Assembly: GCA_963740635.1 (NCBI GenBank)
Contig: CAVUEQ010000001.1
Location: 401,026 to 465,025, forward strand
DNA from: an uncultured bacterium
Lineage (GTDB): Bacteria > Patescibacteriota > Saccharimonadia > UBA4664
Direction: 5' to 3'
DNA: 64,000 nt
The stretch's first letter is position 1, and each line of letters opens with the position of its first letter. The translations under genes were made by a program, and so were the position numbers. The notes beneath the pieces are model-generated. The model did not search any database, was not told where the DNA came from, and was given only the letters and a program-made list of their open reading frames with translations. Below are positions 5,684-54,991 of the stretch, piece after piece.

Positions 5684-5686
5684 GGT

Positions 5687-6226: not shown

Positions 6227-6227
6227 G

Positions 6228-6614: not shown

Positions 6615-6625
6615 AGCTTATCTCC

Positions 6626-8107: not shown

Positions 8108-8108
8108 C

Positions 8109-9021: not shown

Positions 9022-9028
9022 GGCAAAC

Positions 9029-10116: not shown

Positions 10117-10391
10117 TACTTCTGTCCCTTCGCCAATTTACCGCCGTGGCCGCGGAATTTCCGGGTGGGGCTAAACTCACCGAGCTTGTGGCCGACCATA
10201 TTTTCAGATACGAACACCGGCACGTGCATGCGGCCGTTGTGGACGGCGATGGTGTGGCCAACCATCTCGGGGCTGATAGTAGAGGCGCGGGCCCAGGTCT
10301 TGAGCACCAACTTGTCGCCGGCCGGCAGGGCGACGATGCGTCCCAGCAACCGAGTATCTACGTGTGGTCCTTTTTTGAGTGATCGGCTCAT
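10116..10391 (-). CDS. rpsS: 30S ribosomal protein S19
   Basis: 91-aa ORF ([12 protein letters not shown]...GHKLGEF). Confidence 0.97.
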
Positions 10392-11264: not shown

Positions 11265-11545
11265 TACTTGGCCCCCTCGAACAAAGCGATTTTTTGGCCG
11301 CTCTGAAGTTTAATCATGGCTTTCTTGACGTCCTTTTGGCGGCCCAGGACTTGCTTGAAGCGCTTGAGTTTGCCTTTGGAAATGATCATGTTGACGTCGG
11401 TAACGTTGACCTTGAACGTGGACTCGACGGCCCGCGCCACTTCAATCTTGTTGGCGCTGGTGGGCACCTCGAACACGTAAATGCCACGCTCGGCGAGATA
11501 AATGGCTTTTTCACTAATCTTGGGAGTAAGCACGATCGAACTCAT
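11264..11545 (-). CDS. rplW: 50S ribosomal protein L23
   Basis: uL23. ATG at 11543-11545 chosen (MSSIVLTPKISEKA) because it overlaps the rplD stop as TAATG. The ORF track extends to 11563. Confidence 0.9.
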   Translation of the reverse strand: MSSIVLTPKISEKAIYLAERGIYVFEVPTSANKIEVARAVESTFKVNVTDVNMIISKGKLKRFKQVLGRQKDVKKAMIKLQSGQKIALFEGAK

Positions 11546-12177
11546 TATTTCTCTCCCAACCACGAATTAATAACTGCGAGCGCCTTTTCGGTAACGACGA
11601 TTTTGTCGGCGTTCATAACGTCGTAAACATTGAGGTAGTTGGCCTGGACGGTCTTGAGGCCGGCGATGTTGCGGGTGGCGCGCTCGATGAGGTCGGTCTT
11701 GGCTTCGACGGCCAGGAGCAGATTGCCGCTAAGGCCCATCTTGCCCAGTAACTGGACGGTGGACTTCACTTTGCCCTCGGTGTCGAAGGTTTCGAGCACC
11801 ACGATGTCGCCGGCGGCGGCGCGCAGGCTCAGCGCCCCGCGGATGGCCGCGCGCTTCATGCGCACCGGCAAGGTGAGCTGGTGGTTTTCGTTGCCGGTGG
11901 GGCCAAACACCACGCCGCCGCCGCGCCAGTTGGGTACGCGGATGGAGCCGACGCGCGCGCGGCCCGTGCCTTTTTGGCGCCAGGGCTTCTTGCCGCCGCC
12001 GCGCACCAGCCCGCGGGTGAGGGTGCTAGGACCGGCTACCCGGCCGGCCGCCAGATAGGTGCGGTAGGCTTGAGCGACCAGCTCGTGGTTGGCTTCCACG
12101 CCAAACACCGCGGTGTCCAAGGTGTGGCCGGTTTCGCGGGCGGCGCCGGCTTTGGTGTAAGCGGTTACGGATTTCAT
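11545..12177 (-). CDS. rplD: 50S ribosomal protein L4
   Basis: 210-aa ORF, uL4 (KPWRQKGTGRARVGS). Confidence 0.96.
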   Translation of the reverse strand: MKSVTAYTKAGAARETGHTLDTAVFGVEANHELVAQAYRTYLAAGRVAGPSTLTRGLVRGGGKKPWRQKGTGRARVGSIRVPNWRGGGVVFGPTGNENHQLTLPVRMKRAAIRGALSLRAAAGDIVVLETFDTEGKVKSTVQLLGKMGLSGNLLLAVEAKTDLIERATRNIAGLKTVQANYLNVYDVMNADKIVVTEKALAVINSWLGEK

Positions 12178-12833
12178 GCGGTGCCTCGGACCATTACGAG
12201 CCCGCGCTTGGGACCAGGCACGGCGCCCGAGATGGCCAGCACACCGAGCGCCGGGTCTACCACGACCACCTTGAGGCCCTTAACGGTGACCTGGTCGTGG
12301 CCCATGTGGCCGGCCATGCGCAGGCCCTTGAAGACATGCTCCGGATAACCCGAGCCGATGGAGCCGTGGGCGCGATAGTTGTGCGAACCGTGGGTCTTGG
12401 GTCCGCGGGCGAAATTGTGGCGCTTAATGGTGCCGGCAAAGCCCTTGCCCTTCGAAGTAGCCGTGACTTCCACCGGGTCGCCGGCCTCAAAAGCAGTGAC
12501 GTCGAGCGTGGCGCCCACTTCCAGCGCCATGGCCTCGGCGACGGCGGCTTCGCGGGCTTTGGCGGCGGGGTGGCCGGCCTCCACGTCCTTAATGCGGAAT
12601 TCGCGCATGGTGCGCGCATTTGAGCCGGAGGCCTTGAGGTGGCCAGCTTGTGGCTTGGGCTGATGCTTGGCCTCGCCAAAACCGAGCTGGACGGCATTAT
12701 AGCCGTCCTTGTCGCTGGTCTTGACCTGCGTGACCACGCACGGGCCGGCCTGAATAAGCGTCACGCGAGCGACGTTGCCGGACTCGTCGAAGAGTTGAGT
12801 CATGCCAAGTTTTGTTCCGAGAATCGCCTTCAT
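12174..12833 (-). CDS. rplC: 50S ribosomal protein L3
   Basis: 219-aa ORF, uL3 (GTKLGMTQLF...KGKGFAGTIKRHNF). Confidence 0.96.
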   Translation of the reverse strand: MKAILGTKLGMTQLFDESGNVARVTLIQAGPCVVTQVKTSDKDGYNAVQLGFGEAKHQPKPQAGHLKASGSNARTMREFRIKDVEAGHPAAKAREAAVAEAMALEVGATLDVTAFEAGDPVEVTATSKGKGFAGTIKRHNFARGPKTHGSHNYRAHGSIGSGYPEHVFKGLRMAGHMGHDQVTVKGLKVVVVDPALGVLAISGAVPGPKRGLVMVRGTA

Positions 12834-12946
12834 TCAAGCCCTACTTACATAAATAAACCCTAGGCAATGGTGGTTTCCCCTAGGCTCGGGGACCTGCCGC
12901 TTCCTAGTCTATTGGCACGCACGCGCGTGACGCGAAATACCATGTG

Positions 12947-12976
12947 ACTATAGCGTATCTGACGCTTGGCTGTCAA
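12947..12976 (-). promoter_or_regulatory. near-consensus promoter for rplC and the downstream ribosomal genes
   Basis: Minus strand reads TTGACA (12971-12976), 18 nt, TATAGT (12947-12952). Overlaps the 3' end of the upstream membrane-protein gene. Implies a leader of about 105 nt. Confidence 0.55.
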
Positions 12977-13373
12977 CAGGTGCGGGCGGGGTTTGGCCGC
13001 CGCCGCGCCGGGTAAGTTGGGCCAGCTCTTCGCCAAGGGCGCCGTTCATTAATATGAGGCCGGAGATGGTGAGGGTGGCGGCCACTGCGTACGAGGCCAG
13101 CCAGCGGAAATCCTGAACAAACAAACGCCGTTCCGTGATGACTGGTATGAGCACGAAAATGGCCGCGAAATTGCTCATCCACCACCCGATCAAGAAGCCT
13201 CGCGGGCGCTTTAACGGATGCTGCTTGGACAATTCGCGGACCCGCAAAAACCGCCTGGTGACGCGCCAGTTCAGATACAAAATTACCGGCAGGGGCAAAT
13301 TTCCGAGAATGAAGATCCACACATAAGTACTATACCCAGTACCTATGAGATATCCAGCATTGACAAAACGCAT
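12948..13373 (-). CDS. hypothetical integral membrane protein
   Basis: 141-aa ORF with about 4 hydrophobic helices. No recognised family. Confidence 0.55.
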   Translation of the reverse strand: MRFVNAGYLIGTGYSTYVWIFILGNLPLPVILYLNWRVTRRFLRVRELSKQHPLKRPRGFLIGWWMSNFAAIFVLIPVITERRLFVQDFRWLASYAVAATLTISGLILMNGALGEELAQLTRRGGGQTPPAPVDSQASDTL

Positions 13374-13415
13374 ATTCTGTGTTGATATGCATTATTCTTG
13401 ATTTTGGAGATTTTC

Positions 13416-13601
13416 ATGAACCCCAGCTCCACGGCACAGCGCATCGGATCGCTGCTGGCCATCACCATTGGCATCACCATCGCCGACAGCTACGTGCCGC
13501 ACGAACTTACGCTTGTGCGGCAACTGCTGGCGATAGTTCAACTTGGCTTGATGGCCGCGATTGTGGTCCTGACGCTAGGTTCGCTACTGCGCGACTTCTA
13601 A
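13416..13601 (+). CDS. hypothetical small membrane protein (61 aa)
   Basis: GGAG is 8 nt before the ATG at 13416. Two hydrophobic helices. Its stop abuts the stop of the convergent gene. Confidence 0.45.
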   Translation: MNPSSTAQRIGSLLAITIGITIADSYVPHELTLVRQLLAIVQLGLMAAIVVLTLGSLLRDF

Positions 13602-13859
13602 CTAAAACCAAATGCTTAGGGGCGCGATGGCGCCAAACAGCCCGATGATAGCGCCCACGATCATCACCGCATACTCGATTTTGCGGTCGATGGCGAAGTG
13701 GTCGTGCTGAGCTACAATAAGTCCGACGACCAGGCCTCCTGGAATTAACGGGAGGCCGTTGATTTTGATCCAACATAGTCCCAGCGTCAGGAAGACGAGA
13801 ATTTTCAGGAAATAGGCGTTGTCGGATTCCCGGGCGCTGGTTTTGCGGACTTTACTCAT
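13602..13859 (-). CDS. hypothetical small membrane protein (85 aa)
   Basis: Two to three hydrophobic helices. Start lies 6 nt after TGgTTTAAT (13866-13874). Confidence 0.5.
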   Translation of the reverse strand: MSKVRKTSARESDNAYFLKILVFLTLGLCWIKINGLPLIPGGLVVGLIVAQHDHFAIDRKIEYAVMIVGAIIGLFGAIAPLSIWF

Positions 13860-13971
13860 GCGCGTATTAAACCATAAGCGTGATGCAGGTGCAATGGGTG
13901 GCTTTGACTTCTAAGGCAGGTGGGTCTTTCCGAGCGTTTTGGATGATACTACTTTCGCAAAAATAGATACT

Positions 13972-13999
13972 TTTTGCACCTATTCCTTTTGCACCTATT
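13972..13999. repeat. tandem direct repeat, 2 x TTTTGCACCTATT
   Basis: Identical 13-mers at 13972-13984 and 13987-13999 (period 15), next to a GCAAAAA/TTTTTGC hairpin. Confidence 0.6.
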
Positions 14000-14034
14000 T
14001 GATGGTAGTTGATTCGCCAAAAAAGTAATCAGGC

Positions 14035-14067
14035 CCGCCGCACCCTCCAGTTGGAGAGATGCGGCGG
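14035..14067 (-). terminator. GC-rich hairpin ending the rarA operon
   Basis: CCGCCGCA (14035-14042) pairs with TGCGGCGG (14060-14067), with an inner CTCC/GGAG stem. The T-run on the minus strand is about 10 nt away, so it is not canonical. Confidence 0.45.
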
Positions 14068-14094
14068 ACCCTTGGTCCGGGTGGGCGTGCCGGT

Positions 14095-14208
14095 CTAGTC
14101 GCCGACCGGGCCGAAGAGGAAGACGAGGACACCGGCGACGACGACGCCGACGACAGCGAGGAACGACTTCCCCTTGTTCTCCTTGACCACCTTCGGTACG
14201 ACGGACAT
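14095..14208 (-). CDS. 37-aa single-pass membrane micro-protein (hypothetical)
   Basis: Not in the ORF track. GGAAGGA Shine-Dalgarno 8 nt before the ATG. Reads MSVVPKVVKENKGKSFLAVVGVVVAGVLVFLFGPVGD, followed by the hairpin at 14035-14067. Confidence 0.4.
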   Translation of the reverse strand: MSVVPKVVKENKGKSFLAVVGVVVAGVLVFLFGPVGD

Positions 14209-14280
14209 GGCGTAGTTCCTTCCGGACGAGAGCAGGTCACTTGCCTACTCGACTGTGGCACCGGGTTCGGGCCGGGAAAA

Positions 14281-15498
<1,218 letters not shown>

Positions 15499-15531
15499 GT
15501 ATTCACTATAACCGCCGCGGCGCCAGATATG

Positions 15532-16116
15532 CTAGAAGTTCAGGATGCGCGTGCGGCCAGGCTCGACGATGGCAAAGGTCTGGTGGGCGCCGACGGTGGC
15601 CGGCCACCGCAATTTGGTGGAAGCTAAACATTCTTTGGCCAACTCCACCAGCTCGCCGGCGCTTGAGCTGCTGAGATCGCTGCCGGCCAGCACTTCCTTG
15701 GCAGCGGCAGTGGAGCCGGCGAGGGCCGAGCTTTCTATTACCGGCTTGAGGTAAAAATCCTGCGCACTGTCCAGGTAATAAATCCCGGGTTCGTCGGTGT
15801 GGCGGACGGGGTCGATGCCCGCCACGATAATTTCGACCCGGCCGGTCATTTGGCCCAGGTGCGGCACGAGATCGAGAACCAGCGCCGCCTGGATAAGCTG
15901 CGCCAGCTCGGCCGGGCTGGTGGTAGCCGTGAGGGCAGGCACCACCTTTTCCATGACCGGACGCCGCACCGCCTCCAGATTGCCGGCCACTAGCAGGATC
16001 GCGCGCCCGGGCACATTCATAAATTGTCCGAACTTAAGGGTGCCGTCGGGGATCGAGGCTACATCGCTGGCAGCCACCACGCAGTCGCGGTTTTTGAGAG
16101 CAAGGATTAATGGCAT
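15532..16116 (-). CDS. proteasome beta-subunit-like (Ntn-hydrolase fold) protein lacking the Thr1 nucleophile
   Basis: Start set at the internal ATG 16114-16116 (MPLILALKNRDCVVAASD...), 4 nt after the upstream stop. Block pattern matches 20S beta/HslV (ILALK..D.VVAASD, ILLVAGN, IIVAGID, ALAGST). Pro occupies the Thr1 position. Confidence 0.5.
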   Translation of the reverse strand: MPLILALKNRDCVVAASDVASIPDGTLKFGQFMNVPGRAILLVAGNLEAVRRPVMEKVVPALTATTSPAELAQLIQAALVLDLVPHLGQMTGRVEIIVAGIDPVRHTDEPGIYYLDSAQDFYLKPVIESSALAGSTAAAKEVLAGSDLSSSSAGELVELAKECLASTKLRWPATVGAHQTFAIVEPGRTRILNF

Positions 16117-16120
16117 GCGG

Positions 16121-16783
16121 CTATTTTGCGCGCTGAGCGAACTTGCCGTCAATGGCCGCAATGGCGGTCGTGAGTGAGGAATCGAGCTGGCCGTCGAGCA
16201 GGCGGGCCTCGGCGATAAGCTGCTCCGGGTTGCCGGGGCCGGCGCTGCTGCTGGGGGCATATTTGGCTTCATAGGCCAGGGTTTCGAGGTGGGTGGCCTG
16301 GTCGAGCCAGTAATAGGCCGTGGCGATCACGCCCAGCAGGCGGGCGTCTTGCATCACGAACAGCCGGCCCGAGGCTTTCACGGAGGTCCAGAACTGCGTG
16401 AGGTAATCAATGCGGGCAAACAGGGTGGTGCTGCCGCGGCGGGCGTCAAACAAGGCTTTGTCTTCGGCCAGCTCTGCCCGGATTTGCTCGAGGATATCGC
16501 GCTCCATCTGGAGCGTGTTGGGGGCTGCGGCCGCGTGGCGGGCCGGCTCGGGGCGCAGCGTGCCAAAAAACAGGCCGACCGGAATGCCGATCATCACGCC
16601 TAACGCGCCTGCCGCCACGCCTGATCCCAGGAAGGCCAGGTAGCTGCCGGCCAGGGCGCCGGCGCTGACCCGGCCAAACAGATAAGCCAGCGGGGCCAGC
16701 AAGGCCAGCACGCCGAGCATAACCCGGCCGCTCAGCCGGAAGCCGCTCCCGGGTGTTTGAGGGGTGATGTCTGGAGTTGCCAT
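16121..16783 (-). CDS. hypothetical membrane protein (N-terminal TM helices plus helical soluble domain)
   Basis: 220-aa ORF. First gene of the operon with the proteasome-like gene and rarA. Confidence 0.55.
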   Translation of the reverse strand: MATPDITPQTPGSGFRLSGRVMLGVLALLAPLAYLFGRVSAGALAGSYLAFLGSGVAAGALGVMIGIPVGLFFGTLRPEPARHAAAAPNTLQMERDILEQIRAELAEDKALFDARRGSTTLFARIDYLTQFWTSVKASGRLFVMQDARLLGVIATAYYWLDQATHLETLAYEAKYAPSSSAGPGNPEQLIAEARLLDGQLDSSLTTAIAAIDGKFAQRAK

Positions 16784-16794
16784 AAGAATGCACT

Positions 16795-16823
16795 ATTATA
16801 AGCGCATTTTGACAAATGATCAA
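16795..16823 (-). promoter_or_regulatory. promoter of the membrane / proteasome-like / rarA operon
   Basis: Minus strand reads TTGATC (16818-16823), 17 nt, TATAAT (16795-16800). The ATG is 11 nt after the -10. Confidence 0.5.
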
Positions 16824-16940
16824 TTCTTACTTATAAAGTACTCGGTCGCCGCCTTGAATTCCGGCAGCGCCAAAATTATTGCATGCGTGCGTCGGGTAGT
16901 TGCCCAAAATGGGACAAGCCTACGGAAAATAGCCTCAATT

Positions 16941-16967
16941 TTGAAAACTATTGCCCTAAATGGGCAA
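16941..16967 (-). terminator. intrinsic terminator after rnhA
   Basis: TTGCCC/GGGCAA stem (16951-16967) followed on the minus strand by TAGTTTTC. A degenerate second copy of the hairpin lies at 16900-16917. Confidence 0.45.
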
Positions 16968-17001
16968 CTCCTTCGATGGTGAGCACCCTCACAACAAACC
17001 C

Positions 17002-17466
17002 TTATCCTGTAGTGTCTCGGCCGGCGCGCGCCAGCAGCCCTTGTTTGCGGGCCTCATTGGCCCAATGATCGGCCAGCTCGTTGCCGGGATCATTATTGTG
17101 CCCGCGCACCCACACCAGGACCGCCCGCGACTGGCGATAAAGCTCCACCACCTCCCGCACCAGATCGAGATTTTTGATCTCACCGCCTTTTTTCTTCCAC
17201 CCGTTGCGCTCCCAACCAACGGACCACTTGGTGATCACGTTAATCCAAAATTCCGAATCGGTGTGAATGGCGCAGGGTGCGCCGGCGGCATCCTGAAGCG
17301 CCGCTATCAGCGCCCGGCCCTCCATGCGGATGTTGGTGCTATCGGGGTCGCTCCCGAGGATATGCGGCTTCATGTCGCGAATAACCGCGAACCCGCCGGC
17401 GCCTGGATTGGGCTCGCAGCTGCCATCGGTGTAGTAAATTATGGGATCTGGGCCGGTTTCTGACAT
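17002..17466 (-). CDS. rnhA: ribonuclease HI
   Basis: 154-aa ORF with RNase H motifs (YTDGSC...GAGG, TNIRMEGRA, HTDSE, VRGHNNDPGNELAD). Confidence 0.9.
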   Translation of the reverse strand: MSETGPDPIIYYTDGSCEPNPGAGGFAVIRDMKPHILGSDPDSTNIRMEGRALIAALQDAAGAPCAIHTDSEFWINVITKWSVGWERNGWKKKGGEIKNLDLVREVVELYRQSRAVLVWVRGHNNDPGNELADHWANEARKQGLLARAGRDTTG

Positions 17467-17586
17467 GGGTTAATTTTACACTAAAAGTCGAACGGCCGGC
17501 CCCCTGGAGGGATCAGCCATCGAGGTGCTCGAGTTGCTGCCTATTCCGGGGCTGTAATTTCCGCGCCGCACCGCTACAATCGGGGT

Positions 17587-17841
17587 ATGAATAATGCAGA
17601 TTTAATCCTGTCGGGCGAAGTCATCGAGCAATCCTGTTCCGAGGACCAGGCCGCGGCCTTTCGATCCGCCATCGAGAATCTCATGATTGAAGACCTGGTG
17701 GCGATTAATGATTACCTCAATGCCGGCGTGGCGCCCGACTCGGATTGGCAATCCTATTGGAATGCCTTTGCCAAATTTGAGTGGAAAGACTTCAGCATCG
17801 CCTACCGCCACGTCCTCGACCGCGACTTCAGCTTGGATTAA
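17587..17841 (+). CDS. hypothetical acidic protein (84 aa)
   Basis: ATG lies 6 nt after TACAAT (17575-17580). No recognised domain. Confidence 0.45.
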   Translation: MNNADLILSGEVIEQSCSEDQAAAFRSAIENLMIEDLVAINDYLNAGVAPDSDWQSYWNAFAKFEWKDFSIAYRHVLDRDFSLD

Positions 17842-17878
17842 ACGCCGAGGCAGGCCCCACAGGCTCAAATGTAATCCG

Positions 17879-18292
17879 CTAAATCGCCCGCATCCGGTTC
17901 CCGCGCGGGTTGTGCTCCAGCTCCACCAGCCCCAACGCCTCCATCAGCGGCGGCATGTACATGCCAAACCGACCGCGCAGACCCTTCTTGGTGCCGTACC
18001 AGCCGCCCACCGGATTTTTCGGGTCGCGCGCCCAGGCCTCCACGGTCCCCGCCTTGGCCTCCTTTTGCTCGTCGGCCGCGCCCAATTCCATCCAATCGCC
18101 GTGCGCCTTCAGCATAGCGTGCAAATCCTCAATGGCCCGCGCCAGGTACCCGAGCTTGGTCGAGCCCACCACGCACACAATCATCGCCGGCTCCACCGTC
18201 TTATCCATATACATCTGATACTGCGACGTCCCTGGCGGCGTCGTGAGCTGCCACGGTGATTCTTTGGTGCCGTTGCCTTTTACGTCTGGCAT
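17879..18292 (-). CDS. conserved hypothetical protein (MPDVKGNGTK...GDWMELG...NPVGGWYG family)
   Basis: 137-aa ORF. GAGGAGG Shine-Dalgarno. From memory it resembles a widespread uncharacterised bacterial family. Confidence 0.55.
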   Translation of the reverse strand: MPDVKGNGTKESPWQLTTPPGTSQYQMYMDKTVEPAMIVCVVGSTKLGYLARAIEDLHAMLKAHGDWMELGAADEQKEAKAGTVEAWARDPKNPVGGWYGTKKGLRGRFGMYMPPLMEALGLVELEHNPRGNRMRAI

Positions 18293-18318
18293 GATTTGGA
18301 CCTCCTCGTTACTTGCGC

Positions 18319-18552
18319 TTACTTGATTTTGCTAATCTGTTCGAGATATTCGACGGTATCTATGCCGAGGGTACGCAGATTTGATTTAATGATGAATACG
18401 GGTATCTCCGAGTCCGCCTGAATGATGATGGGCCGCTTCAAATCTTTACGGCCGTAAATAATATGGTCGCCCTTCGTGCGTAAATACTCGCACCCGATGG
18501 AAACTAAAAATTTCTCGAAGCGAGGCCGAGAAATTTCTGTGACTTTGGGCAT
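18319..18552 (-). CDS. hicA: HicA-like mRNA interferase toxin
   Basis: 77-aa ORF. KGDHIIYGR...RPIIIQ...IKSNLRTLGI matches the HicA/YcfA pattern. Confidence 0.7.
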   Translation of the reverse strand: MPKVTEISRPRFEKFLVSIGCEYLRTKGDHIIYGRKDLKRPIIIQADSEIPVFIIKSNLRTLGIDTVEYLEQISKIK

Positions 18553-18559
18553 GCCCCGG

Positions 18560-18868
18560 TTACGCGTAGGTGGGCACGGCGACTTTTATTTCAGAGGGTG
18601 AGTCTTCTACTAACTGCGGCGGCATCCAGGGCGACCTTGCTGTTTTGACCCAACCCAACTCCTCGAGCACTTCGTCAGTCGTGCCTCGTTCGTGAAGATC
18701 CTCGAAGAAGAGCATTACCGCCTCGCCAAACCGTTTTTGGACGTCAGCTTTGCTTTTACCCTGTACGCTCAGCTCGAGCACGGGGGTGTAGGCAATGAAA
18801 TAGTTCCCTTGTTGCATCAGCATCACAGGTAACTTATATTCTAATTTGGCGGCGATTGGTTTGCTCAT
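18560..18868 (-). CDS. hicB: HicB-like antitoxin (UPF0150 N-terminal fold)
   Basis: 102-aa ORF. ...GNYFIAYTPVLELSVQGKSKADVQKRFGEAV... matches the HicB N-domain. Lies 7 nt upstream of hicA. Confidence 0.65.
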   Translation of the reverse strand: MSKPIAAKLEYKLPVMLMQQGNYFIAYTPVLELSVQGKSKADVQKRFGEAVMLFFEDLHERGTTDEVLEELGWVKTARSPWMPPQLVEDSPSEIKVAVPTYA

Positions 18869-18886
18869 GCAGCAATTATAGCTGAG

Positions 18887-19219
18887 TTACATCTTGATTT
18901 CGATGTCGACGCCGGCGGGGAGGTTGAGGTTCATGAGGGCGTCGATGGTCTTGGGGGTGGGCTCGGTGATGTCGATGAGGCGTTTGTGGGTGCGCATTTC
19001 GAACTGCTCGCGGGCGTCCTTGTAGATGTGCGGGCTGCGCAGGACAGTCATGGAGTTCTTCTCGGTAGGCAGCGGAATCGGGCCCGCGACGGTAGCGCCT
19101 GTGCGGGTGGCGGTGTCGATGATTTGTTTGGCGGACTGGTCGATGACTTTGGAGTCATACGCCTTTAGGCGGATACGGATCCGCTGCTTTTCTGGGGCTT
19201 TGACTTCGGCTGTGGCCAT
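18887..19219 (-). CDS. rpsJ: 30S ribosomal protein S10
   Basis: 110-aa ORF ([11 protein letters not shown]...[11 protein letters not shown]). Confidence 0.97.
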
Positions 19220-19282
19220 GGGTAGGTGCTATCTCTTGTTGATCGGTTAATACTAAATACACGCTCACGTGGTGTTGGGTTG

Positions 19283-19312
19283 ATTTAAGCACGGTAATGC
19301 GGTTTTTGTCAA
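19283..19312 (-). promoter_or_regulatory. candidate rpsJ promoter
   Basis: Minus strand reads TTGACA (19307-19312), 18 nt, TGcTTAAAT (19283-19291). Confidence 0.4.
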
Positions 19313-19438
19313 TGTGATGCTGAACATCTCGGTGATTTCGTGGTGTTATTTCCCGATGGATAAATTAGCCTATGGTTTGGGGGCTTTATTTTGGCTCTAG
19401 GACGTTATTTTATTAGTCCTTGATTATTATTGTGGTTA

Positions 19439-19447
19439 TGGTATAAT
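19439..19447 (+). promoter_or_regulatory. extended -10 promoter TGgTATAAT
   Basis: Perfect TGnTATAAT in an AT-rich spacer, about 70 nt before the GTG at 19517. Confidence 0.45.
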
Positions 19448-19516
19448 GGCTTTGTCGGTACCCGCTGACACCCACCCTGGAGCTTCTGCTCCCCTCGTCA
19501 AGATTGGAGTCACGCC

Positions 19517-49235: not shown

Positions 49236-49249
49236 CCATCTCGGCTAGG

Positions 49250-49513
49250 CTATTTCTTGTACAGCTGGTTATGCGTACCTACTGCAACAAATAATAATTC
49301 ATTATCCCCGACGATCTTGTAATGTGCACGCCAATCCCCGCCAAAGGAGATGGAGCGGTGGCCCGACCATTCTCCAGTGAGAGGATGGTTGTACAGGATT
49401 GCATCGCCCGGGTTAGACCTAAAGGAGCGAAGGGCCTGCTTTAAGCGCTCTTTTTGGGCCGGCCGTAGTTTTTTCGCTTGTTTCGTAAACGTCTTGCTGA
49501 AGTTAACGGTCAT
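49250..49513 (-). CDS. relE: RelE/YafQ-family type II toxin
   Basis: 87-aa ORF. ...LTGEWSGHRSISFGGDWRAHYKI.GDNELLFVAVGTHNQLY matches the RelE/StbE pattern. Overlaps the antitoxin stop by 4 nt. Confidence 0.75.
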   Translation of the reverse strand: MTVNFSKTFTKQAKKLRPAQKERLKQALRSFRSNPGDAILYNHPLTGEWSGHRSISFGGDWRAHYKIVGDNELLFVAVGTHNQLYKK

Positions 49514-49785
49514 AGTGACCCGAGGTAGTCTTCCAGCTCAGAGTCGTTGACGACAGTGTTGACCCGACCGGAAGCATAATCAGCTTCTGCCTCGCGGATT
49601 AAGCCTTGGAGGTAAGTCGTTGGCTCTAATGAAGAGCTGAGGGTTATTTCGCGGCTACGCAACATCTGCTTGATGGTGGCATTCACTAGCGACGTTGCCG
49701 GGATGCCAACCTCTTCGGCAAACTCCTTGAGCTCTTTCCGGGTGGCTTCATCAAGACGTACGTTCATGGTGACGGTTTTACTCAT
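49510..49785 (-). CDS. relB: RelB/DinJ-family antitoxin
   Basis: Start set at ATG 49783-49785 (MSKTVTMNVRLDEATRKELKEFAEEVGIPATSLVNATIKQML). It lies 6 nt after TACAAT, with a TTTACA -35 and an ATGTG-TAT-CACAT palindrome. Confidence 0.7.
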   Translation of the reverse strand: MSKTVTMNVRLDEATRKELKEFAEEVGIPATSLVNATIKQMLRSREITLSSSLEPTTYLQGLIREAEADYASGRVNTVVNDSELEDYLGSL

Positions 49786-49939
49786 GATTTGATTGTATGC
49801 TTTATGTGTATCACATGTAAACACGTCCAGGCCAGGAGGCCAATCGCTCCGCCGAAGGTCAGGTGCCAGGGATAAATCCTGGGATGAGTTTAAGTGGGGC
49901 CCATACATTCAGCTTAACTTATTTAGTAGCTGCGGCGTG

Positions 49940-50359
49940 TTACTTAGAAACAATAAACTGCCCCAACACCTGCTGCTCCAAATGGTCGTGGAAGATGAAG
50001 GTGCCGGCTTTGTTTAGCGTCACAGTGAGGCTTTGCCCTTTGGCGAGCAGTTTTTCGGACGTCCCGTCATACTCAATGTGGTGGTCGTGGGGACCAAAGG
50101 CCATGAGCCGCTGGGTGTCGTCGCTGTTTGTGATGGTCAAGGTATCGCAGAGCTTGGCTTGGGTGAGAGCAGGCTGCACGAAGTTATTTGCGATTGTCAC
50201 GTGTTGGGCTGGATGGTTGCTGCCCTTGCAGTTGGCTAGGCCCTGCTGGGCGGGGTTTGAGGGTAAGTACTTGTCACTCAGGTAGAGAGTGCCGGAAACG
50301 ACAACGACGCAGACCAGAATGAAGCCGGTCGCAAGGCCAACGGTTCGAAGTTTCGTCAT
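49940..50359 (-). CDS. membrane-anchored cupredoxin-like protein
   Basis: 139-aa ORF. N-terminal TM helix. C-terminal GTFIFHDH...Q pattern resembles small blue-copper folds. Confidence 0.45.
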   Translation of the reverse strand: MTKLRTVGLATGFILVCVVVVSGTLYLSDKYLPSNPAQQGLANCKGSNHPAQHVTIANNFVQPALTQAKLCDTLTITNSDDTQRLMAFGPHDHHIEYDGTSEKLLAKGQSLTVTLNKAGTFIFHDHLEQQVLGQFIVSK

Positions 50360-50436
50360 GGACGTTCGCTGAGATGGCGGTTAAGGATAAGTGGCATGGG
50401 TATATTCTATACTTTAGTATACTTCTACCGAAATCC

Positions 50437-50489
50437 AACTCCTTTTGCAGTGGTTGTCGCACCTATGGCAACTGTTGACTAACTCAAAG
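50437..50489. repeat. intergenic repeat, copy a
   Basis: AACTCCTTTTGCAGTGGTTGTCGCACC...TCAAAG, homologous to copies b and c. Lies just 3' of mazF-1. Confidence 0.6.
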
Positions 50490-50500
50490 TTGCCTCGGAA

Positions 50501-50842
50501 TTAATGACCGTTGATCAGTAATGCTACCTTTGCAGAAGCTTCAGCTAGCACCTCTTCGGGCGCCTGCGCTATGAAGGCTGTCTCGCGGGCACGATAGTCG
50601 ATACTTCGAACGTGAATGGGCAAGACTGCCCCGTTAATACGGGTGGTCGAGACTATTACCTCGTTTGGCCTGCCTTTCGGCTTGCTTGTTATCGGGCACA
50701 TTACGACTAACCCGGTTTTTTCTGCCATTAGCTTGCGCGATAGGATCAACGCCGGCCTTCGACCAGACTGCTCATGGCCCAATCGAGGATCTAGCTGAAG
50801 CCAAACAAGATCGCCGCGCTCAGGAATATACGGGTCAGACAT
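50501..50842 (-). CDS. mazF: MazF/PemK-family endoribonuclease toxin (copy 1)
   Basis: Start set at MSDPYIPERGDLVWLQLDPRLGHEQSGRRPALILS...CPITSK. Overlaps the mazE stop. Confidence 0.8.
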   Translation of the reverse strand: MSDPYIPERGDLVWLQLDPRLGHEQSGRRPALILSRKLMAEKTGLVVMCPITSKPKGRPNEVIVSTTRINGAVLPIHVRSIDYRARETAFIAQAPEEVLAEASAKVALLINGH

Positions 50843-51092
50843 CGTACCATCGTTCGGCGCCAACATCAGGTCCCCAATCATACTCTGCATGAACGCTTGC
50901 GGGTGTAAGCCCATCAAGTAGCCCTTCAAGGGTTAGTTCGCCAGGAGCGATGGGCCGTAATGTAATGGTCTTGCCATTGCTCTTAATCTCGACATCAGAG
51001 TCATCGCGAAGCCCCAGCTCATCGACGACTCGTTGAGGAATTCGCACAGCCAGGCTGTTGCCCCACTTCTTGACCTTAGCTTCAGCTTTCAT
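50835..51092 (-). CDS. mazE: MazE/AbrB-SpoVT-family antitoxin (copy 1)
   Basis: 85-aa ORF, KKWGNSLAVRIPQRV swapped-hairpin motif. Upstream promoter TTGTAC-17-TATACT with an ATATAC/GTATAT palindrome. Confidence 0.8.
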   Translation of the reverse strand: MKAEAKVKKWGNSLAVRIPQRVVDELGLRDDSDVEIKSNGKTITLRPIAPGELTLEGLLDGLTPASVHAEYDWGPDVGAERWYDV

Positions 51093-51344
51093 GATGTCTC
51101 CTGCTTGCGCAGAGTATATACTATTGTATATCCGGGTACAAGATAGTCTTCTGCTCGGCTACCAGATGGGGATGGGTTTTTAGAAGCCCCGACGCCGCAG
51201 CTCACGACGGGCTGTTTTAAGGGAGAGGGCAAGCAGTTGCTGCCGTAAAAGCGAAGGCCCCCGCCCCGAAGTTGATTTGAGTTTCTGCAGGGGCTATATA
51301 TACTTAAGCGCAATGGAACATTGAAGGCGAGACAAACGGCAGCT

Positions 51345-52415
51345 ATGGCAATAAAACAACGATCTCAGTTACTTAGGGACAGGTTGCCAGGTAATGGCCT
51401 GCTACTCCTGGTGTTTGTAGGGATATTTGGGATAGCCGGTACGCTACTTTTGAAGACCTCGAGGGCTGCTAGTACGACGGCTTTTGAAGCCGAAGCCAAT
51501 CCAAGTGGTGTTACCGGCCCGGCCGCAGTCGTGCCTCTTGGCACTGCTTCTGGCGGGCAGGCTGTTAAATTTGGCTCTGGTGCTGGTGGTGTAACGGATG
51601 CAACCCTGAACGCACTGATTGCATCGACACCACCGTCCACTTCTGGCCCGGCACCCTCTGGTCCGACAGTCGGCCAATCAGGACAGTTCGACACTTCGAC
51701 GCTGGCGACAAATGAAATTTGGGACAACTTTGACGGCACCACGCTCGACAGCCGGTTATGGCAACGGGATACGATTAACCAAGGCGGTACCCAGGTCTAT
51801 CAAAACGCCAACATGACTCTCGATGGCAGCGGGCATGCCGTCATGACGGCCACTCAGAGCGGCAGTACGATTTATTCGGGCCGGTTTACCTCACGCCAGA
51901 AATTTGCGATGAAGTACGGCTGGAGCGCGGCCAGAATCAAAATGCCATATTCAGGAAACGGTGTCGGCGGGGCCTGGTTCCCGGCATTTTGGATGTTACT
52001 GGTCGGTTATAACACCAGCCCAAACTATGCCGAATATGATCTTATGGAGCAATTTGGTGATTCCTCTACGTATTCAACTCACCTGTACCTGAGTGACGGC
52101 ACCGCCAGCGACGACAAACAATCATACAAGGCTGTGCCATCATCGCAGGGCAGCGATGCGAGCCAAGCGTACCATACCTATTGGACACTCTGGGAAGCCG
52201 ACCGCATACGCGTCGGTGTTGATTCGCTGGTAATGGGCGACTGGCATTCGACAGATTTTTCTGCCGGCCAATGGGCCAATCACATGCAGCAACCTATGTA
52301 TTACATATTTAATTTTGCTGTAGCGCCAAGTTGGTTACCTGCGCCCAAGCCAACAGACTTCCCTGCGCAGATGAACGTCGACTGGGCCTGGTATAAGCCC
52401 CTGTCGGCTTTGTAG
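51345..52415 (+). CDS. secreted glycoside hydrolase family 16 (beta-glucanase/laminarinase-like)
   Basis: WFPAFWML and catalytic EYDLME (ExDxxE) motifs. N-terminal signal/TM helix. Start ambiguous (TTG 51321 or ATG 51345). Confidence 0.75.
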   Translation: MAIKQRSQLLRDRLPGNGLLLLVFVGIFGIAGTLLLKTSRAASTTAFEAEANPSGVTGPAAVVPLGTASGGQAVKFGSGAGGVTDATLNALIASTPPSTSGPAPSGPTVGQSGQFDTSTLATNEIWDNFDGTTLDSRLWQRDTINQGGTQVYQNANMTLDGSGHAVMTATQSGSTIYSGRFTSRQKFAMKYGWSAARIKMPYSGNGVGGAWFPAFWMLLVGYNTSPNYAEYDLMEQFGDSSTYSTHLYLSDGTASDDKQSYKAVPSSQGSDASQAYHTYWTLWEADRIRVGVDSLVMGDWHSTDFSAGQWANHMQQPMYYIFNFAVAPSWLPAPKPTDFPAQMNVDWAWYKPLSAL

Positions 52416-52452
52416 GCATACTTCTATGGTGCCCTTGAACGACATTCATGAG

Positions 52453-52496
52453 AACTCTTTTTGCAATGGTTGGACCGTTTACGTCAAGCGTTTGAG
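52453..52496. repeat. intergenic repeat, copy b
   Basis: AACTCTTTTTGCAATGGTTGGACC...GTCAAGCGTTTGAG. Lies just 3' of mazF-2. Homology to copy c continues leftward to about 52425, right at the GH16 stop. Confidence 0.6.
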
Positions 52497-52512
52497 CTTG
52501 ACCCGAACTAGG

Positions 52513-52851
52513 TTAGCCATTGACCAAACTGTCAATAAGTATTTGCGTCTTAGATAAAGTTTCGCCATCGGCCTTGCCGCCGAAGTCAGGTTTTCGTTCA
52601 TGCCAATCAACACTTTTAACCTGATCCGCCAGAATGACGCCGTCTATTTTTTTGGCTTTGATGCGGACTTCAAATGGGTACCCTTTCACTTTGGAGGTAA
52701 TTGGACAAACAAGCATCAACCCGGAACGCAGGTTGTACGGCTGACCGGATAGCACCAAAGCGGGCCGGACACCGGCCTGTTCGTGCCCCACATGGGGGCT
52801 AAAGTTGAACCAAACGATATCACCCCTATCAGGGGTGTATGCCTCTACCAT
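52513..52851 (-). CDS. mazF: MazF/PemK-family endoribonuclease toxin (copy 2)
   Basis: Start set at MVEAYTPDRGDIVWFNFSPHVGHEQAGVRPALVLS...CPITSK. Confidence 0.8.
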   Translation of the reverse strand: MVEAYTPDRGDIVWFNFSPHVGHEQAGVRPALVLSGQPYNLRSGLMLVCPITSKVKGYPFEVRIKAKKIDGVILADQVKSVDWHERKPDFGGKADGETLSKTQILIDSLVNG

Positions 52852-53093
52852 ATTTCTTTTCCGACCGGCGCTCCCCAATCTACTTCGCGATGAACATTCT
52901 CGGGAGTGATGCCTTTAACTAGGTCATCTAGAGATAGCCGAGGGTTCTCTTCGCGCTTTATGATCGCCGTATTACCATCGCTAGTGATTTCAATTTGGGT
53001 ATCATTTGTGAGCCCCAGATCTCGAGCTACACGAGAAGGTATGCGGATTGCCAGGCTGTTGCCCCACATCTTTACTTGAGTCGTAGTTTTCAC
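52845..53093 (-). CDS. mazE: MazE/AbrB-SpoVT-family antitoxin (copy 2)
   Basis: 82-aa ORF, KMWGNSLAIRIPSRV. Promoter TTGACG-17-TACAAT upstream. Confidence 0.8.
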   Translation of the reverse strand: MKTTTQVKMWGNSLAIRIPSRVARDLGLTNDTQIEITSDGNTAIIKREENPRLSLDDLVKGITPENVHREVDWGAPVGKEIW

Positions 53094-53171
53094 TTTGTGC
53101 CCTCTTTATTGGGTCTAATTGTATATCTTTGTATCTACACCGTCAAGTAATATTTAGTTGGTTCGAACCAG

Positions 53172-53333
53172 TTAAGCAAACGGTGGAAAATGTGATGAAT
53201 GCTCCCATGGTTGACCGAACCATACGTTACCGAAATCCTTCGTGATAAAAACGATGTAGTAATCGCCGTTCGGAAGCACAGCGACGGGCCACTCTCTTGA
53301 AGTGTCAATTTTGGTGACTTGAAAGGCACTCAT
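53172..53333 (-). CDS. possible 53-aa ORF (hypothetical)
   Basis: Not in the track. Reads MSAFQVTKIDTSREWPVAVLPNGDYYIVFITKDFGNVWFGQPWEHSSHFPPFA. More protein-like than the overlapping track ORF 53135-53329. Starts right after repeat copy c. Confidence 0.3.
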   Translation of the reverse strand: MSAFQVTKIDTSREWPVAVLPNGDYYIVFITKDFGNVWFGQPWEHSSHFPPFA

Positions 53334-53336
53334 TCG

Positions 53337-53380
53337 AACTCTTTATGCGATGGTTGTGGGACCTCTGTCAAGTTTTTGAG
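53337..53380. repeat. intergenic repeat, copy c
   Basis: AACTCTTTATGCGATGGTTGTGGGACC...GTCAAGTTTTTGAG. Confidence 0.6.
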
Positions 53381-53478
53381 GCTGAATCCCTGTGACGGAA
53401 TATTTGACTTCCCTGCAGGATGTGACTAAGGCCTCACTATTTTGGGCGCGACCAGGAGCTGGCAAAGCATACTTTTCT

Positions 53479-53925
53479 TCAGTGGGTCGAGATGGCCCAT
53501 ACTAACAGCGTAAATGCGTATAAGTTTATTAGTAACGTTCTAATCCAGTGTGTTTGCAGAATCTTCTTAAGATACGTACTCTTTGGCCCTGCTGGATCTT
53601 TACTAAGTTTCGCCTGCCATTGTCCCCAAAACATTGCGGTAAGAATAAGAGAAAGGGCTTGATAGAGGATCGTAGTCCAAATCGCCCATTGCGGTGACCC
53701 GTCCGGATGATACCAGGCAAGGGTAATTGAGCCTATAAGTGCGACTCCAACTGGAGCAAAAATCCAGTAGGGTAGTTTTCTCCAATGCACCTCCTGGACC
53801 TTGTGAAAGTCCTTGGAATCGACCAGCTTCCACGTCCTGAAAATATCAATTTCCATTGCCCAAATGGTGCCTACGTTATAGAAACCAAGAGCGAGATTCA
53901 ATAGAAGGAAGGTGTATGTACTCAT
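53479..53925 (-). CDS. hypothetical 4-TM membrane protein
   Basis: 148-aa ORF. ATG is 6 nt after TATAAT (53932-53937). Confidence 0.55.
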   Translation of the reverse strand: MSTYTFLLLNLALGFYNVGTIWAMEIDIFRTWKLVDSKDFHKVQEVHWRKLPYWIFAPVGVALIGSITLAWYHPDGSPQWAIWTTILYQALSLILTAMFWGQWQAKLSKDPAGPKSTYLKKILQTHWIRTLLINLYAFTLLVWAISTH

Positions 53926-54106
53926 GCTTAAATTATACAGATATCCTGGCCAGCGATAAAGGCGACAAATACGTGATGGGCACTACTTTCACTTCCTTTG
54001 GATCACCGAGACGCCATTGCTAAATTATCGCATTTATTACAAACAAGCGCCGATAATTCGAGGCGCTCTTGTACTATCGACTGATGTAAACATAAGAATG
54101 ATATCT

Positions 54107-54192
54107 TGGTGCGGATGAAAGGACTTGAACCTTCACGGGGTTTCCCCCACTAGCTCCTAAGGCTAGCGTGTCTACCATTCCACCACATCCGC
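54107..54192 (-). tRNA. tRNA-Leu (anticodon UAG), class II with long variable arm, CCA encoded
   Basis: Minus strand: GCGGATG acceptor stem, anticodon stem CTAGC/GCTAG with loop CTTAGGA, variable arm GGGGGAAACCCC, T-arm GGTTCAAGTCC, 3' end CATCCGCACCA. Confidence 0.9.
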
Positions 54193-54241
54193 GCGGTGCG
54201 CTCACAAGTATAACTGGAATCTGCGGCTGCGTGAACTATAT

Positions 54242-54926
54242 CTAGTTGACCGGGAAAATCCTGCTTAGCCCGTAGAGGATGAGTAGAACCAGAGCAAGGG
54301 TCGAGTAGGTCTTGATGTAGGTGATGGCGATCTGGTTTTCTTGAAGCTCTATTGGTTTCGCCCTGTGGCTCGCGGGCGCTGCGTACCCAAAAGCAGGGGT
54401 CGCCTTTCGGTCATAAATTCGAAATGAAGCAATTGGATAAACCGGGAGCATGAACGCCGTGAACCATTTGGTGGCAACATAAGAGCCGTCGGGATGCACA
54501 TCTGATCGGCCGTAAAGATACGTGCCAAATCCGTAGGCGCTAAAAGATCCGCTGCTACGCAACGCTACTAGGTTTCGACTCGTGAGAGGCTTGCCTGCAT
54601 CGATAACCCAATTTGCGATGTAGTCGGGGTTTTCGACTACTTCGCCAGTAGAAGGCAGTTTGTAACTCCCCTTTTCGAGCCCGCCTGAACGCACCAAAAT
54701 CTGCGGGCAGGCTGATGCGTTTTGCGGTGCCGTGTTCAAGTACTTCTACGTCATCGAGCGTGACTTTCACAATCGTTCCATGCTTTTGTTCATGATCCAC
54801 CGGCCTGCCATCGGGGCCGAGAAAGGAATAACCGATCAAGATATACTTGCCGGTAAGCTTGCTGGATGAGAGTGTTTGAGATTCCGAATTGTGGAGAGTA
54901 TCTTTCACAGATAGTACTATTACCAT
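54242..54926 (-). pseudogene. hypothetical protein with C-terminal TM helix, apparently frameshifted
   Basis: Two overlapping ORFs (54555-54926 and 54242-54739) join sensibly at an AAAAGGGG run near 54665-54675. Confidence 0.4.
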
Positions 54927-54991
54927 ATATTGGGTAGATTTACAAGCCCAGTCACTTGATTACTACCCAAAAAGGGAGTATTTTCTGAAAA

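Follow-up and report, generated by a model that had tools for sequence, protein, structure and literature searches.

A repeated intergenic element as a likely attachment-type site in a tRNA-Leu-anchored cassette array of Saccharimonadia

A 64,000-nt stretch of DNA from an uncultured bacterium of the lineage Saccharimonadia (GenBank assembly GCA_963740635.1, contig CAVUEQ010000001.1, positions 401,026 to 465,025; the whole stretch is called the window below) contains three copies of a short intergenic element, lying among two mazEF toxin–antitoxin pairs and a gene for a GH16 glycosidase. Our analysis indicates that this element is most probably an attachment (att)-type site—an arm followed by a crossover core—of a cassette array that is anchored at a tRNA-Leu(TAG) gene and grows by accretion. 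Three observations carry this reading: a fixed 3' limit common to all full copies, a difference of one cassette between two otherwise identical loci, and the re-use of the same cassette starts behind tRNA and element alike; together, they form the signature of conservative site-specific recombination with tandem accretion. A first-pass annotation of the sequence had described the element as a promoter within a duplicated module or, alternatively, as an independent mobile or regulatory unit. The latter suggestion was on the right track, as the element appears to mark the boundaries of mobile cassettes.

The three copies, designated a, b and c and all read on the minus strand, are situated in an island of 4.9 kb (49.2-54.1 kb) with a GC content of 0.50, as compared with 0.61-0.62 in both flanks. 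The island starts at the 3' end of the tRNA-Leu(TAG) gene, and all copies share the orientation of this tRNA. A 20-mer derived from the element (AACTCTTTTTGCAATGGTTG), scanned with up to three mismatches, matched the plus strand of the 64 kb only at 50437 (two mismatches), 52453 (none) and 53337 (two), against a chance expectation of 0.01 (100 shuffles). An independent nhmmer profile, built exclusively from copies outside the window, likewise retrieved copy b (52545-52427, E = 1.1e-21), copy c (53415-53318, E = 8.1e-18) and copy a (50476-50434, E = 1.4e-4), with no fourth site in the 64 kb—so the three copies first noticed stand where they had been placed. The initial estimate by eye that b and c match at about three-quarters of their positions was borne out by formal alignment, with 55 identical positions in a minimal unit of 69-70 nt and 82% identity across a gapless 39-mer. 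The element is thus better conserved than the flanking genes, as had been proposed, because MazF-1 and MazF-2 are 42% identical and MazE-1 and MazE-2 49%.

On the minus strand, the minimal unit runs from 52496 to 52427 (b) and from 53380 to 53312 (c), with a consensus of CTCAAA-NN-CTTGAC, a variable 10-mer and a near-invariant 46-mer (CAACCATTGCAnAAAGAGTTCGAATGAATGTCGTTCAAGGGCACCA). The element is real, and the 45-70 nt originally assigned to it fall short of its length: the minimal unit takes in 25 nt that had been read as the first eight codons of an open reading frame (ORF), and copy c extends upstream to approximately 53444 (nhmmer E = 1.4e-26 for this long form). Copy a is partial. Its 5' half is identical to b at 18 of 20 positions and to c at 30 of 40, it lacks the 3' half and the core, and nhmmer aligns it to profile positions 57-115 only. 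In L013, one of the loci outside the window (all numbered with the prefix L), an intact long-form element stands behind the mazF-1 orthologue (83% DNA identity), in the place of copy a; copy a therefore represents a decayed site and not a different element. The 7-bp hairpins reported for copies a (50467-73/50488-94) and b (52483-89/52496-502) do exist, at non-homologous positions; copy c has none, and no such hairpin is a feature of the family.

The search for further copies elsewhere, which the first-pass annotation had suggested, was productive. A degenerate-pattern scan of one genome per species yielded four loci in three metagenome-assembled genome (MAG) assemblies, labelled Saccharimonadales, Patescibacteria or uncultured bacterium. 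A metagenome scan added seven contigs, and look-ups anchored on RsmD contributed L020, L067 and L068. Five additional hits of the genome scan (L002, L004, L007, L008 and L010) were set aside as chance matches, at roughly the number expected for a 19-base pattern. Altogether, nhmmer finds about 25 copies outside the window, on at least 12 Saccharimonadales/Patescibacteria contigs. Within each locus, the copies are direct repeats lying between unrelated small gene sets; the element is thus not a by-product of mazEF duplication. Where the tRNA is on the contig (L005, L009/L021, L015, L020, L067 and L068), the copies are found downstream of tRNA-Leu(TAG) and in the same orientation.

The family comprises a short form of ~70-95 nt and a long form of ~140 nt, the added 5' part of which is the 3' end of a gene for a 72-aa XRE-type HTH protein. 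L011 and L006 carry this gene intact and divergent from a gene for an Mrr-type nuclease; it is frameshifted in L003 and reduced to relics of 8-18 codons in L015, L016, element d of L001 and copy c of the window. Across the arrays, the cargo includes MazEF/PemK, RelE/YafQ, Doc-Phd and HigBA-like systems, NYN proteins, Mrr nuclease with HTH, and genes resembling the cyclic-oligonucleotide-based antiphage signaling system (CBASS). Such cargo is typical of accretion arrays and counts in favor of an att-type site.

The first line of evidence for such a site is the position at which similarity ends. In all full copies, it does so at ...TTCAnnnGCACCA, exactly after GCACCA, with unrelated DNA beyond; the tRNA gene ends in TTCATCCGCACCA, i.e., with the same GCACCA. 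The core shared by tRNA and element is short, TTCA plus GCACCA (4 + 6 nt), and reaches 13 nt in the copy at 1401 of L012 and in the attR site of L068. Hybrid cores also occur: the L012 copy (1401) ends in ...CTTCATCCGCACCA, which is the 13-mer of the tRNA, and L015 has ...TTCAACCGCACCA. The most variable bases of the 3' region of the element are the 3 nt preceding GCACCA. In the window, L005, L015, L020, L067 and L068, cassettes join the tRNA exactly at the core.

The second line is the comparison with L001, a 6.4-kb contig from another sample that is 100% identical to the window from 54112 to 50869 (3,244 nt). At the junction (marked by a slash), the window tRNA reads ...TTCATCCGCACCA/AGATATC and element d of L001 reads TTCAAGGGCACCA/AGATATC; in a longer read-out, tRNA...GCACCA/AGATATCATTC in the window corresponds to element d...GCACCA/AGATATCATTC in L001, which itself begins with TTCATCCGCACCA/ATGTTGACACC. 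From these junctions, it follows that the two loci differ by one 3.15-kb cassette plus one element, with cores as the exact bounds. The extra unit of L001 contains two small ORFs besides genes for an HTH_3 protein and for a thioredoxin-like membrane protein of 569 aa.

The third line concerns the first 15-45 nt past the core, which fall into a few classes. Four of these start classes—ATGTTGACACC, AGATATYATTCTT, AAGCATACNAGAAC and ATTAAGAYAAT—directly follow the tRNA in one genome and an element in a different one. In the case of AGATATYATTCTT, for instance, the preceding sequence is the tRNA in the window and in L067, and it is an element in L001, L011, L014 and L020 (twice in the last); in these same four loci, the start of cassette 1 of the window is found behind an element and not the tRNA.

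Many cassettes also carry, 25-35 nt past the core, an A-tract/GC-stem/T-tract hairpin resembling a bidirectional intrinsic terminator (window cassette 1, Table 1; L013, ~450-425; L020, 10694-10723 and 11468-11497; L003, ~7195-7155; L009, ~2757-2730). Folding z-scores were -4.0 in L013, -3.3 in L003, -2.8 and -2.9 in L020, and -2.5 in L014, with a weaker value for window cassette 1; no terminator past the core was found in window cassettes 2 and 3. When its cassette adjoins the tRNA, the hairpin presumably terminates tRNA-Leu transcription—which is what DNA inserted at the 3' end of a tRNA gene needs, and which would also halt a transcript leaving the element.

These observations bear directly on the promoter proposal, according to which a sigma-70 promoter (TTGACA-N18-CATAAA) with a near-leaderless start drives a small ORF plus mazEF, the module having been duplicated before GH16 replaced the small ORF of one copy. 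TTGAC(A/G) is indeed near-invariant and lies 17-18 nt upstream of an A-rich hexamer, about 12 of the 14 cassettes inspected are co-oriented with the element, and an ATG within copy c opens a 53-aa ORF. However, none of the copies yields a promoter call in a sigma-70 consensus scan, each of the -10 candidates (CATAAA, CAAAAA and CAAAAG) lacks the T at position 6, and the supposed spacer (CAACCATTGCA) is invariant, which a promoter spacer is not. The start codon fails as well, the ATG being CTG, AAG or ACG in five family members (L001 3120, L005 2891, L012 1401, L020 11388 and L067 13370). What had been taken for homologous first codons is the conserved 3' end of the element, which stops at GCACCA in every genome; past +25, the copies are unrelated, with the switch exactly at GCACCA. 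Moreover, terminator hairpins stand behind the core in many cassettes, and mazEF-2 has a better promoter of its own (10/12, 53146-53118). Elsewhere, unrelated genes both precede and follow the element, against a duplicated element/small-ORF/mazEF module, and a promoter could not have produced the insertion difference between the window and L001. The abrupt end of similarity near the GH16 gene had been correctly observed—the last similar position of copy b, 52427, is 11 nt away from the stop codon of GH16 (52413-52415)—and is explained by the cassette boundary at 52427/52426. On these grounds, we consider a promoter very unlikely.

Homologous recombination offers a different account, in which the copies serve as anchors for RecA-dependent cassette swaps in naturally competent Saccharimonadales (as in minimal mobile elements), or result from segmental duplication, with no dedicated enzyme. 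At 75-90% identity over 70-140 nt, the copies are similar enough for occasional exchange; the 5' limits of the long forms, with HTH relics of variable length, resemble deletion end-points and not a fixed edge; and the copies at L012 1401 and L016 600 have the same arm with different last 25 nt, as gene conversion could give. Nevertheless, the tRNA and the element have only TTCA plus GCACCA in common, far too little homology for RecA, and yet cassettes join exactly there. Neither the exact common 3' limit of the full copies nor the single orientation behind one tRNA fits this account, which appears unlikely to us, if somewhat less so than a promoter.

A small RNA gene or tRNA-like transcript of ~80-100 nt, with a conserved 5' part, a variable middle and an intrinsic terminator, and with the RNA as its functional product, would make use of the upstream -35-like box, and a terminator 25-35 nt past the core would delimit a short transcript; the 3' part of the element even resembles a tRNA T-loop plus CCA end. 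Structure prediction points elsewhere: RNAalifold on 11 copies gave 9 pairs at -1.6 kcal/mol, no covariation and no conserved fold; DNA folds of four copies, both strands, had z-scores of -1.0 to +1.1, like shuffled sequences; and Rfam returned the tRNA only and nothing for the element. In addition, the -10 region is poor, the segment between core and terminator belongs to unrelated classes, and window cassettes 2 and 3 do without a terminator past the core, which makes a small RNA highly improbable.

The architecture also invites comparison with integrons, the element being an attC site and the locus a classical integron or a cluster of attC sites lacking integron-integrase (CALIN). The mostly co-oriented small cassettes, rich in toxin–antitoxin genes and each ending in a 70-140 nt repeat, do recall the Vibrio cholerae repeat (VCR) arrays. 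Yet neither strand offers the imperfect-palindrome hairpin of attC, the core is GCACCA and not GTTRRRY/RYYYAAC, and what is conserved among these repeats is the sequence, as opposed to the structure in attC sites. Furthermore, no ORF of the window or the loci shows a motif of an IntI-type tyrosine recombinase, and the anchor is a tRNA gene instead of an attI next to intI. We accordingly give an attC site next to no credence.

Several other candidates were rejected along the way. A phage or plasmid origin was dropped because none of three viral-contig scans produced a true match, the 44 matches to a 17-mer of the core being chance hits inside coding sequence. A dispersed repeat of the miniature inverted-repeat transposable element or repetitive extragenic palindrome type does not agree with just three copies in 64 kb, at a single locus, in a single orientation and without conserved inverted repeats. 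By inspection, there is no 11-6-11 palindrome of an XerCD/dif-like site, and the copies are direct, not alternating. Finally, the whole element is not a pseudo-tRNA: only its last ~13-30 nt are tRNA-like, and by eye the arm is unlike the tRNA body or promoter region.

In the mechanism that we favor, each element would be the junction left behind when a small, circularizable cassette integrates. Integration would proceed by conservative site-specific recombination, with either the tRNA-Leu(TAG) 3' end or the core of a resident cassette as its target. A cassette starts directly behind GCACCA, in many cases with a short trailer and a terminator, and ends with the ~70-nt element. Exchange within or next to the shared GCACCA would leave the tRNA intact and place the element distally, past the newly inserted DNA; serial events would then build a directly repeated array, and recombination between two cores would delete or release a cassette. 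We infer that these events are enzyme-catalyzed and conservative, that the cassettes pass through a circular form, and that the enzyme acts in trans.

As candidate enzyme we put forward, tentatively and with slightly less than even confidence, a family of large serine recombinases found in Saccharimonadales, which integrate at the 3' ends of tRNA genes, the link being co-location. In L068 (GCA_038245115.1), a 519-aa protein with Resolvase and Recombinase domains is encoded on the reverse strand directly after tRNA-Leu; the 3' end of the tRNA contains the stop codon of its gene and encodes its last seven codons. The 8.9-kb element of this recombinase (10618-19502) is bounded by a second TTCATCCGCACCA, past which come a class-A start (ATGTTGACAAT) with a terminator, a mazEF pair orthologous to mazEF-2 of the window, and a family element. 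The recombinase family has 850 matches in Saccharimonadales at E<=1e-30. Homologues with 54-56% identity overlap tRNA 3' ends: five contigs (L070-L074) have one at tRNA-Leu(TAG), beside RsmD, and five contigs (loci L075-L080) have a 56%-identical one at tRNA-Met(CAT), where the stop codon overlaps the tRNA in the same way. In each case, it is the targeted tRNA whose complementary strand encodes the last residues of the recombinase. The 8.9-kb element also carries an RVT_1 reverse transcriptase—possibly a retron or defense reverse transcriptase—flanked by HTH genes, together with SRAP, HD_4 and DUF5681 genes.

The cassettes themselves hold a possible trace of this enzyme. The recombinase gene aligns at its 3' end, at ~60%, with class-B cassette starts, that of window cassette 1 among them; upon translation, these starts read as a stop-ridden relic of the C-terminus of the enzyme, which suggests that class-B cassettes are recombinase-less deletion derivatives that keep both half-sites. 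A tblastn search for relics of large serine recombinases in the arrays returned only the tRNA-encoded GADERT plus a 15-aa stop-ridden match at class-B starts, which is suggestive but not significant.

A number of results weigh against an enzyme-driven array, or against this particular enzyme. Searches with regular-expression motifs of tyrosine and serine recombinases (six frames of the window and all true loci) and with Pfam (38 neighboring proteins) found no recombinase encoded in the 64-kb window or in any element-bearing locus except L068. Conversely, the recombinase-bearing loci L070-L080 contain no family element. No circular cassette contig was detected, i.e., no terminal overlaps among short contigs, and viral contigs gave no true match to the element. 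The 5' end of L001 shows just the last 13 nt of the presumed tRNA. At 60-70 nt (up to 140 nt), the arm exceeds a serine-integrase half-site, so it may partly serve another function or reflect recent common descent; and since cassette 2 starts inside a gene fragment and the core of element c is aberrant, at least some junctions arose by illegitimate or secondary-site events. The attR arm of L068 aligns only weakly with the cassette element. A scan of reconstructed attP and attB sites and of element plus cassette-start junctions found no dyad symmetry centered on the core (best fractions 0.41-0.60, all off-center), although this is a weak test, as real sites can be very imperfect.

Serine integrases normally recombine attP with attB only, at sites of ~40-50 bp with an imperfect dyad around a central dinucleotide. 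Serial insertion at an occupied tRNA therefore needs an extra assumption, which also weighs against the proposal: some cassette starts might mimic the B' half-site, or a directionality factor might be involved. The weak attR arm, the missing core-centered dyad and the attP x attB restriction are the reasons for our reserve about the serine-recombinase assignment; the att-type site itself remains the reading that we prefer.

The units of the window locus are listed in Table 1. All genes of interest, and the three element copies, are on the minus strand; GH16 is the exception.

Table 1. Anchor, cassettes and element copies of the island in the window (window coordinates).
Feature	Position	Strand	Content and basis
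tRNA-Leu(TAG), array anchor	54107..54192	-	ARAGORN; Rfam tRNA, 60.9 bits
attB-type core, last 13 nt of the tRNA, TTCATCCGCACCA	54119 to 54107	-	junction sequence verified
Cassette 1 (795 nt, GC 0.45)	53312..54106	-	starts AGATATCATTCTTATG; terminator-like hairpin ~54072-54036; 148-aa membrane ORF 53925 to 53479; element c at end
Element c, long form	53312..53444	-	nhmmer; ends in aberrant core TTCAAGTCACCA
Cassette 2 (885 nt)	52427..53311	-	starts AAATTGACAC; 53-aa ORF body; promoter-like site 53146-53118; mazE-2 53093 to 52845; mazF-2 52851 to 52513; element b; Pfam, promoter scan
Element b, short form	52427..52496	-	CTCAAACGCTTGAC-N10-CAACCATTGCAAAAAGAGTTCTCATGAATGTCGTTCAAGGGCACCA; ends at canonical core
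Cassette 3 body	50493..52426	-	starts TAGAAGTATGCC; GH16 51321-52415 (+, inverted); mazE-1 51092 to 50835; mazF-1 50842 to 50501; Pfam
Element a, degenerate partial	50437..50492	-	arm kept, TTGCCA-N10-CAACCACTGCAAAAGGAGTT; 3' 26 nt including core replaced by GGATTTCGG
Distal segment (cassette 4)	49240..50436	-	starts TAGAAGTATAC; GC 0.515 (0.61 in flank); cupredoxin-like 139-aa ORF 50359 to 49940; DinJ-like 49785 to 49510; YafQ/ParE toxin 49513 to 49250

Both flanks of the island are syntenic in related genomes, with RsmD upstream of the tRNA and a PfkB kinase and trigger factor past the island. The DNA between them varies in content and in length, from ~2.8 kb in L069 and 3.3 kb in L009/L021 to ~6.9 kb in L019, which has no element. 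The tRNA-Leu of the window is 96.5% identical to that of L005. Pfam identifies two MazE/MazF (PemK) pairs, a GH16 enzyme and a YafQ/ParE toxin in the island. The 5' part of copy c is a relic of the last codons of the 72-aa XRE/HTH gene, and its aberrant core, TTCAAGTCACCA, has one base missing, from which a secondary-site event can be inferred for the junction between element c and cassette 2. Of DUF2716, the 53-aa ORF (53172-53333, minus strand) covers the C-terminal quarter only (profile positions 98-132 of 141, E = 2.7e-7); the DUF2716-like part begins at the first base of cassette 2, while the start codon and the first eight codons belong to element c. This ORF is probably a truncated gene fused to element sequence, i.e., a fusion artefact. 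An orthologous mazEF cassette in L068 (19503-20301) has a different 5' part and its own terminal element.

Having lost its core, element a probably can no longer recombine; counted with this decayed element, cassette 3 spans 52426 to 50437. The 9 nt behind the truncation of copy a (TAGAAGTAT) are identical to the first 9 nt of cassette 3. The distal segment, in which nhmmer finds no terminal element, adjoins the conserved PfkB kinase gene; its cupredoxin-like assignment is a weak Pfam match. GH16, the sole cassette gene on the opposite strand, encodes an N-terminal membrane or signal segment and a low-complexity linker, and it has a divergent promoter region of ~230 nt in common with mazE-1. 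AT-rich palindromic motifs (TATAC-N-AAAG-TATA...) precede both mazE genes (51113-51135 and 53117-53140). A third AT-rich palindrome, at 50400-50427, lies just past copy a and ahead of the cupredoxin-like gene; it looks like a mazE-type operator/promoter that lost its mazEF. Between RsmD and the tRNA, a segment of ~800 nt (54193-54990, GC 0.495) contains overlapping ORFs of 165 and 123 aa, the former with no Pfam match. As the tRNA follows RsmD by ~10-190 nt in relatives, this segment looks like a separate insertion upstream of the tRNA.

Outside the window, L011 has a defense-type island (1-13000) upstream of its long-form element, with DUF499, DUF2779/Cas4-like, a LexA-like repressor, SMODS plus ThiF (CBASS-like), DUF6602 and an Mrr_cat nuclease divergent from the 72-aa XRE gene. 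L006 has the Mrr/XRE pair and two conserved proteins of unknown function in common with it (4600-7560). The MAG UBA6017 has another long-form element in L006, 82 nt upstream of tRNA-Arg(TCG) and tRNA-Lys(CTT) genes of the same orientation (4486-4623 and 4235-4404), on a contig that differs from the one with the tRNA-Leu array (L009); either a second locus or a mixed bin would explain this. Contigs L018, L020, L066, L014 and L001 begin or end inside or just past the RsmD/tRNA-Leu array: L014 opens at a cassette start, and L001 with the last 13 nt of the tRNA.

Among described systems, the ssrA tandem islands of Dehalococcoides are the closest published parallel (PMC3146451). There, several islands lie in tandem downstream of ssrA, bounded by the 3' end of the gene or by a short direct repeat of it, with additional conserved sequence upstream of each repeat that cannot be aligned with the RNA gene; a DsiB/CcrB-type serine recombinase (~520-540 aa) is encoded next to attL on the reverse strand, and units without an integration module have been proposed to be cis-mobilizable (PMC3146451). 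The arrays described here share the tandem, repeat-bounded units behind one small-RNA gene, the conserved upstream arm and, in L068, the placement of the recombinase. They differ in target (tRNA-Leu(TAG) instead of transfer-messenger RNA) and host phylum (Patescibacteria), in a core of 6-13 nt as opposed to 20 nt and an arm of 60-140 nt as opposed to a 15-bp motif, and in far smaller units (0.8-3 kb) that are recombinase-less in every array except L068; the link between enzyme and site is here a candidate one, by co-location. Tycheposons of Prochlorococcus also integrate at tRNA genes, where later arrivals push older elements deeper and neighbors are separated by a partial tRNA only, leaving degenerate remnants and extra partial tRNAs; they bring their own integrase, mostly a tyrosine recombinase, and replication modules (bioRxiv 10.1101/2020.12.28.424599). 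Push-in accretion at a tRNA is common to both systems, whereas the units here are integrase-less micro-cassettes with one common conserved arm and little tRNA sequence in the repeat.

The cis-mobilizable elements (CIMEs) of streptococci are att-flanked modules without integrase or transfer genes that accrete at tRNA genes or the conserved 3' ends of other genes. They are mobilized by the integrase of a related element, as a rule a tyrosine integrase, and usually persist as single remnants next to an integrative and conjugative element (ICE). Our cassettes resemble CIMEs as att-bounded units without integrase that accreted at a tRNA, but they form arrays of three to four or more units of <1 kb. 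CIMEs and the accretion of ICEs and of integrative and mobilizable elements in streptococci have been reviewed (PMC5704250). With integron arrays, the locus has in common a fixed insertion point, unidirectional small cassettes with one distal site each and an abundance of toxin–antitoxin genes, and like the VCRs, the element was first noticed as an intergenic repeat. The differences lie in the absence of an attC hairpin, a GTTRRRY core and intI, in a site conserved in sequence and located by a tRNA core, and in the many cassettes with their own promoter and a terminator at the start. In the literature searched, coverage of which was incomplete, we found no description of such an array or element in Saccharibacteria/Patescibacteria. 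Accretion anchored at a tRNA is known as such; what sets these arrays apart is the host phylum, the tiny and mostly recombinase-less units, the 70-140 nt arm carried across unrelated cargo, and the short core.

A more far-reaching interpretation, which we regard as doubtful at present, is that of an integron-like gene-capture platform in Saccharimonadales. Here, tRNA-Leu(TAG) would be the fixed insertion point for integrase-less cassettes (<1-3 kb), and a large serine recombinase acting in trans would insert, excise and shuffle them. As att half-sites, the cassettes would keep only the 70-nt element on one side and, on the other, ~30 nt left over from the end of the recombinase gene; their cargo would be toxin–antitoxin, defense and surface-enzyme genes.

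For annotation and assembly, two practical points follow. An annotated ORF whose start lies within the element, as does that of the 53-aa ORF, calls for suspicion, and short-read assemblies break just past RsmD/tRNA-Leu because of the repeats. Patescibacteria, including Saccharibacteria, have genomes of ~1 Mb with few recognized mobile elements, and the turnover of their accessory genes is poorly understood. The locus provides a concrete, sequence-defined route for gene exchange in such reduced genomes: a hot spot behind tRNA-Leu where sub-kilobase cassettes with toxin–antitoxin pairs, a GH16 glycosidase, nucleases and CBASS-like genes are stacked and exchanged between strains. If the candidate recombinase is the enzyme, then the recombinase and a ~100-bp site could serve as an integration tool for Saccharibacteria, which are very hard to manipulate genetically. 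And should the platform interpretation prove true, a phylum whose genomes are very small would have its own counterpart of the integron, built on double-stranded sites and a serine recombinase.

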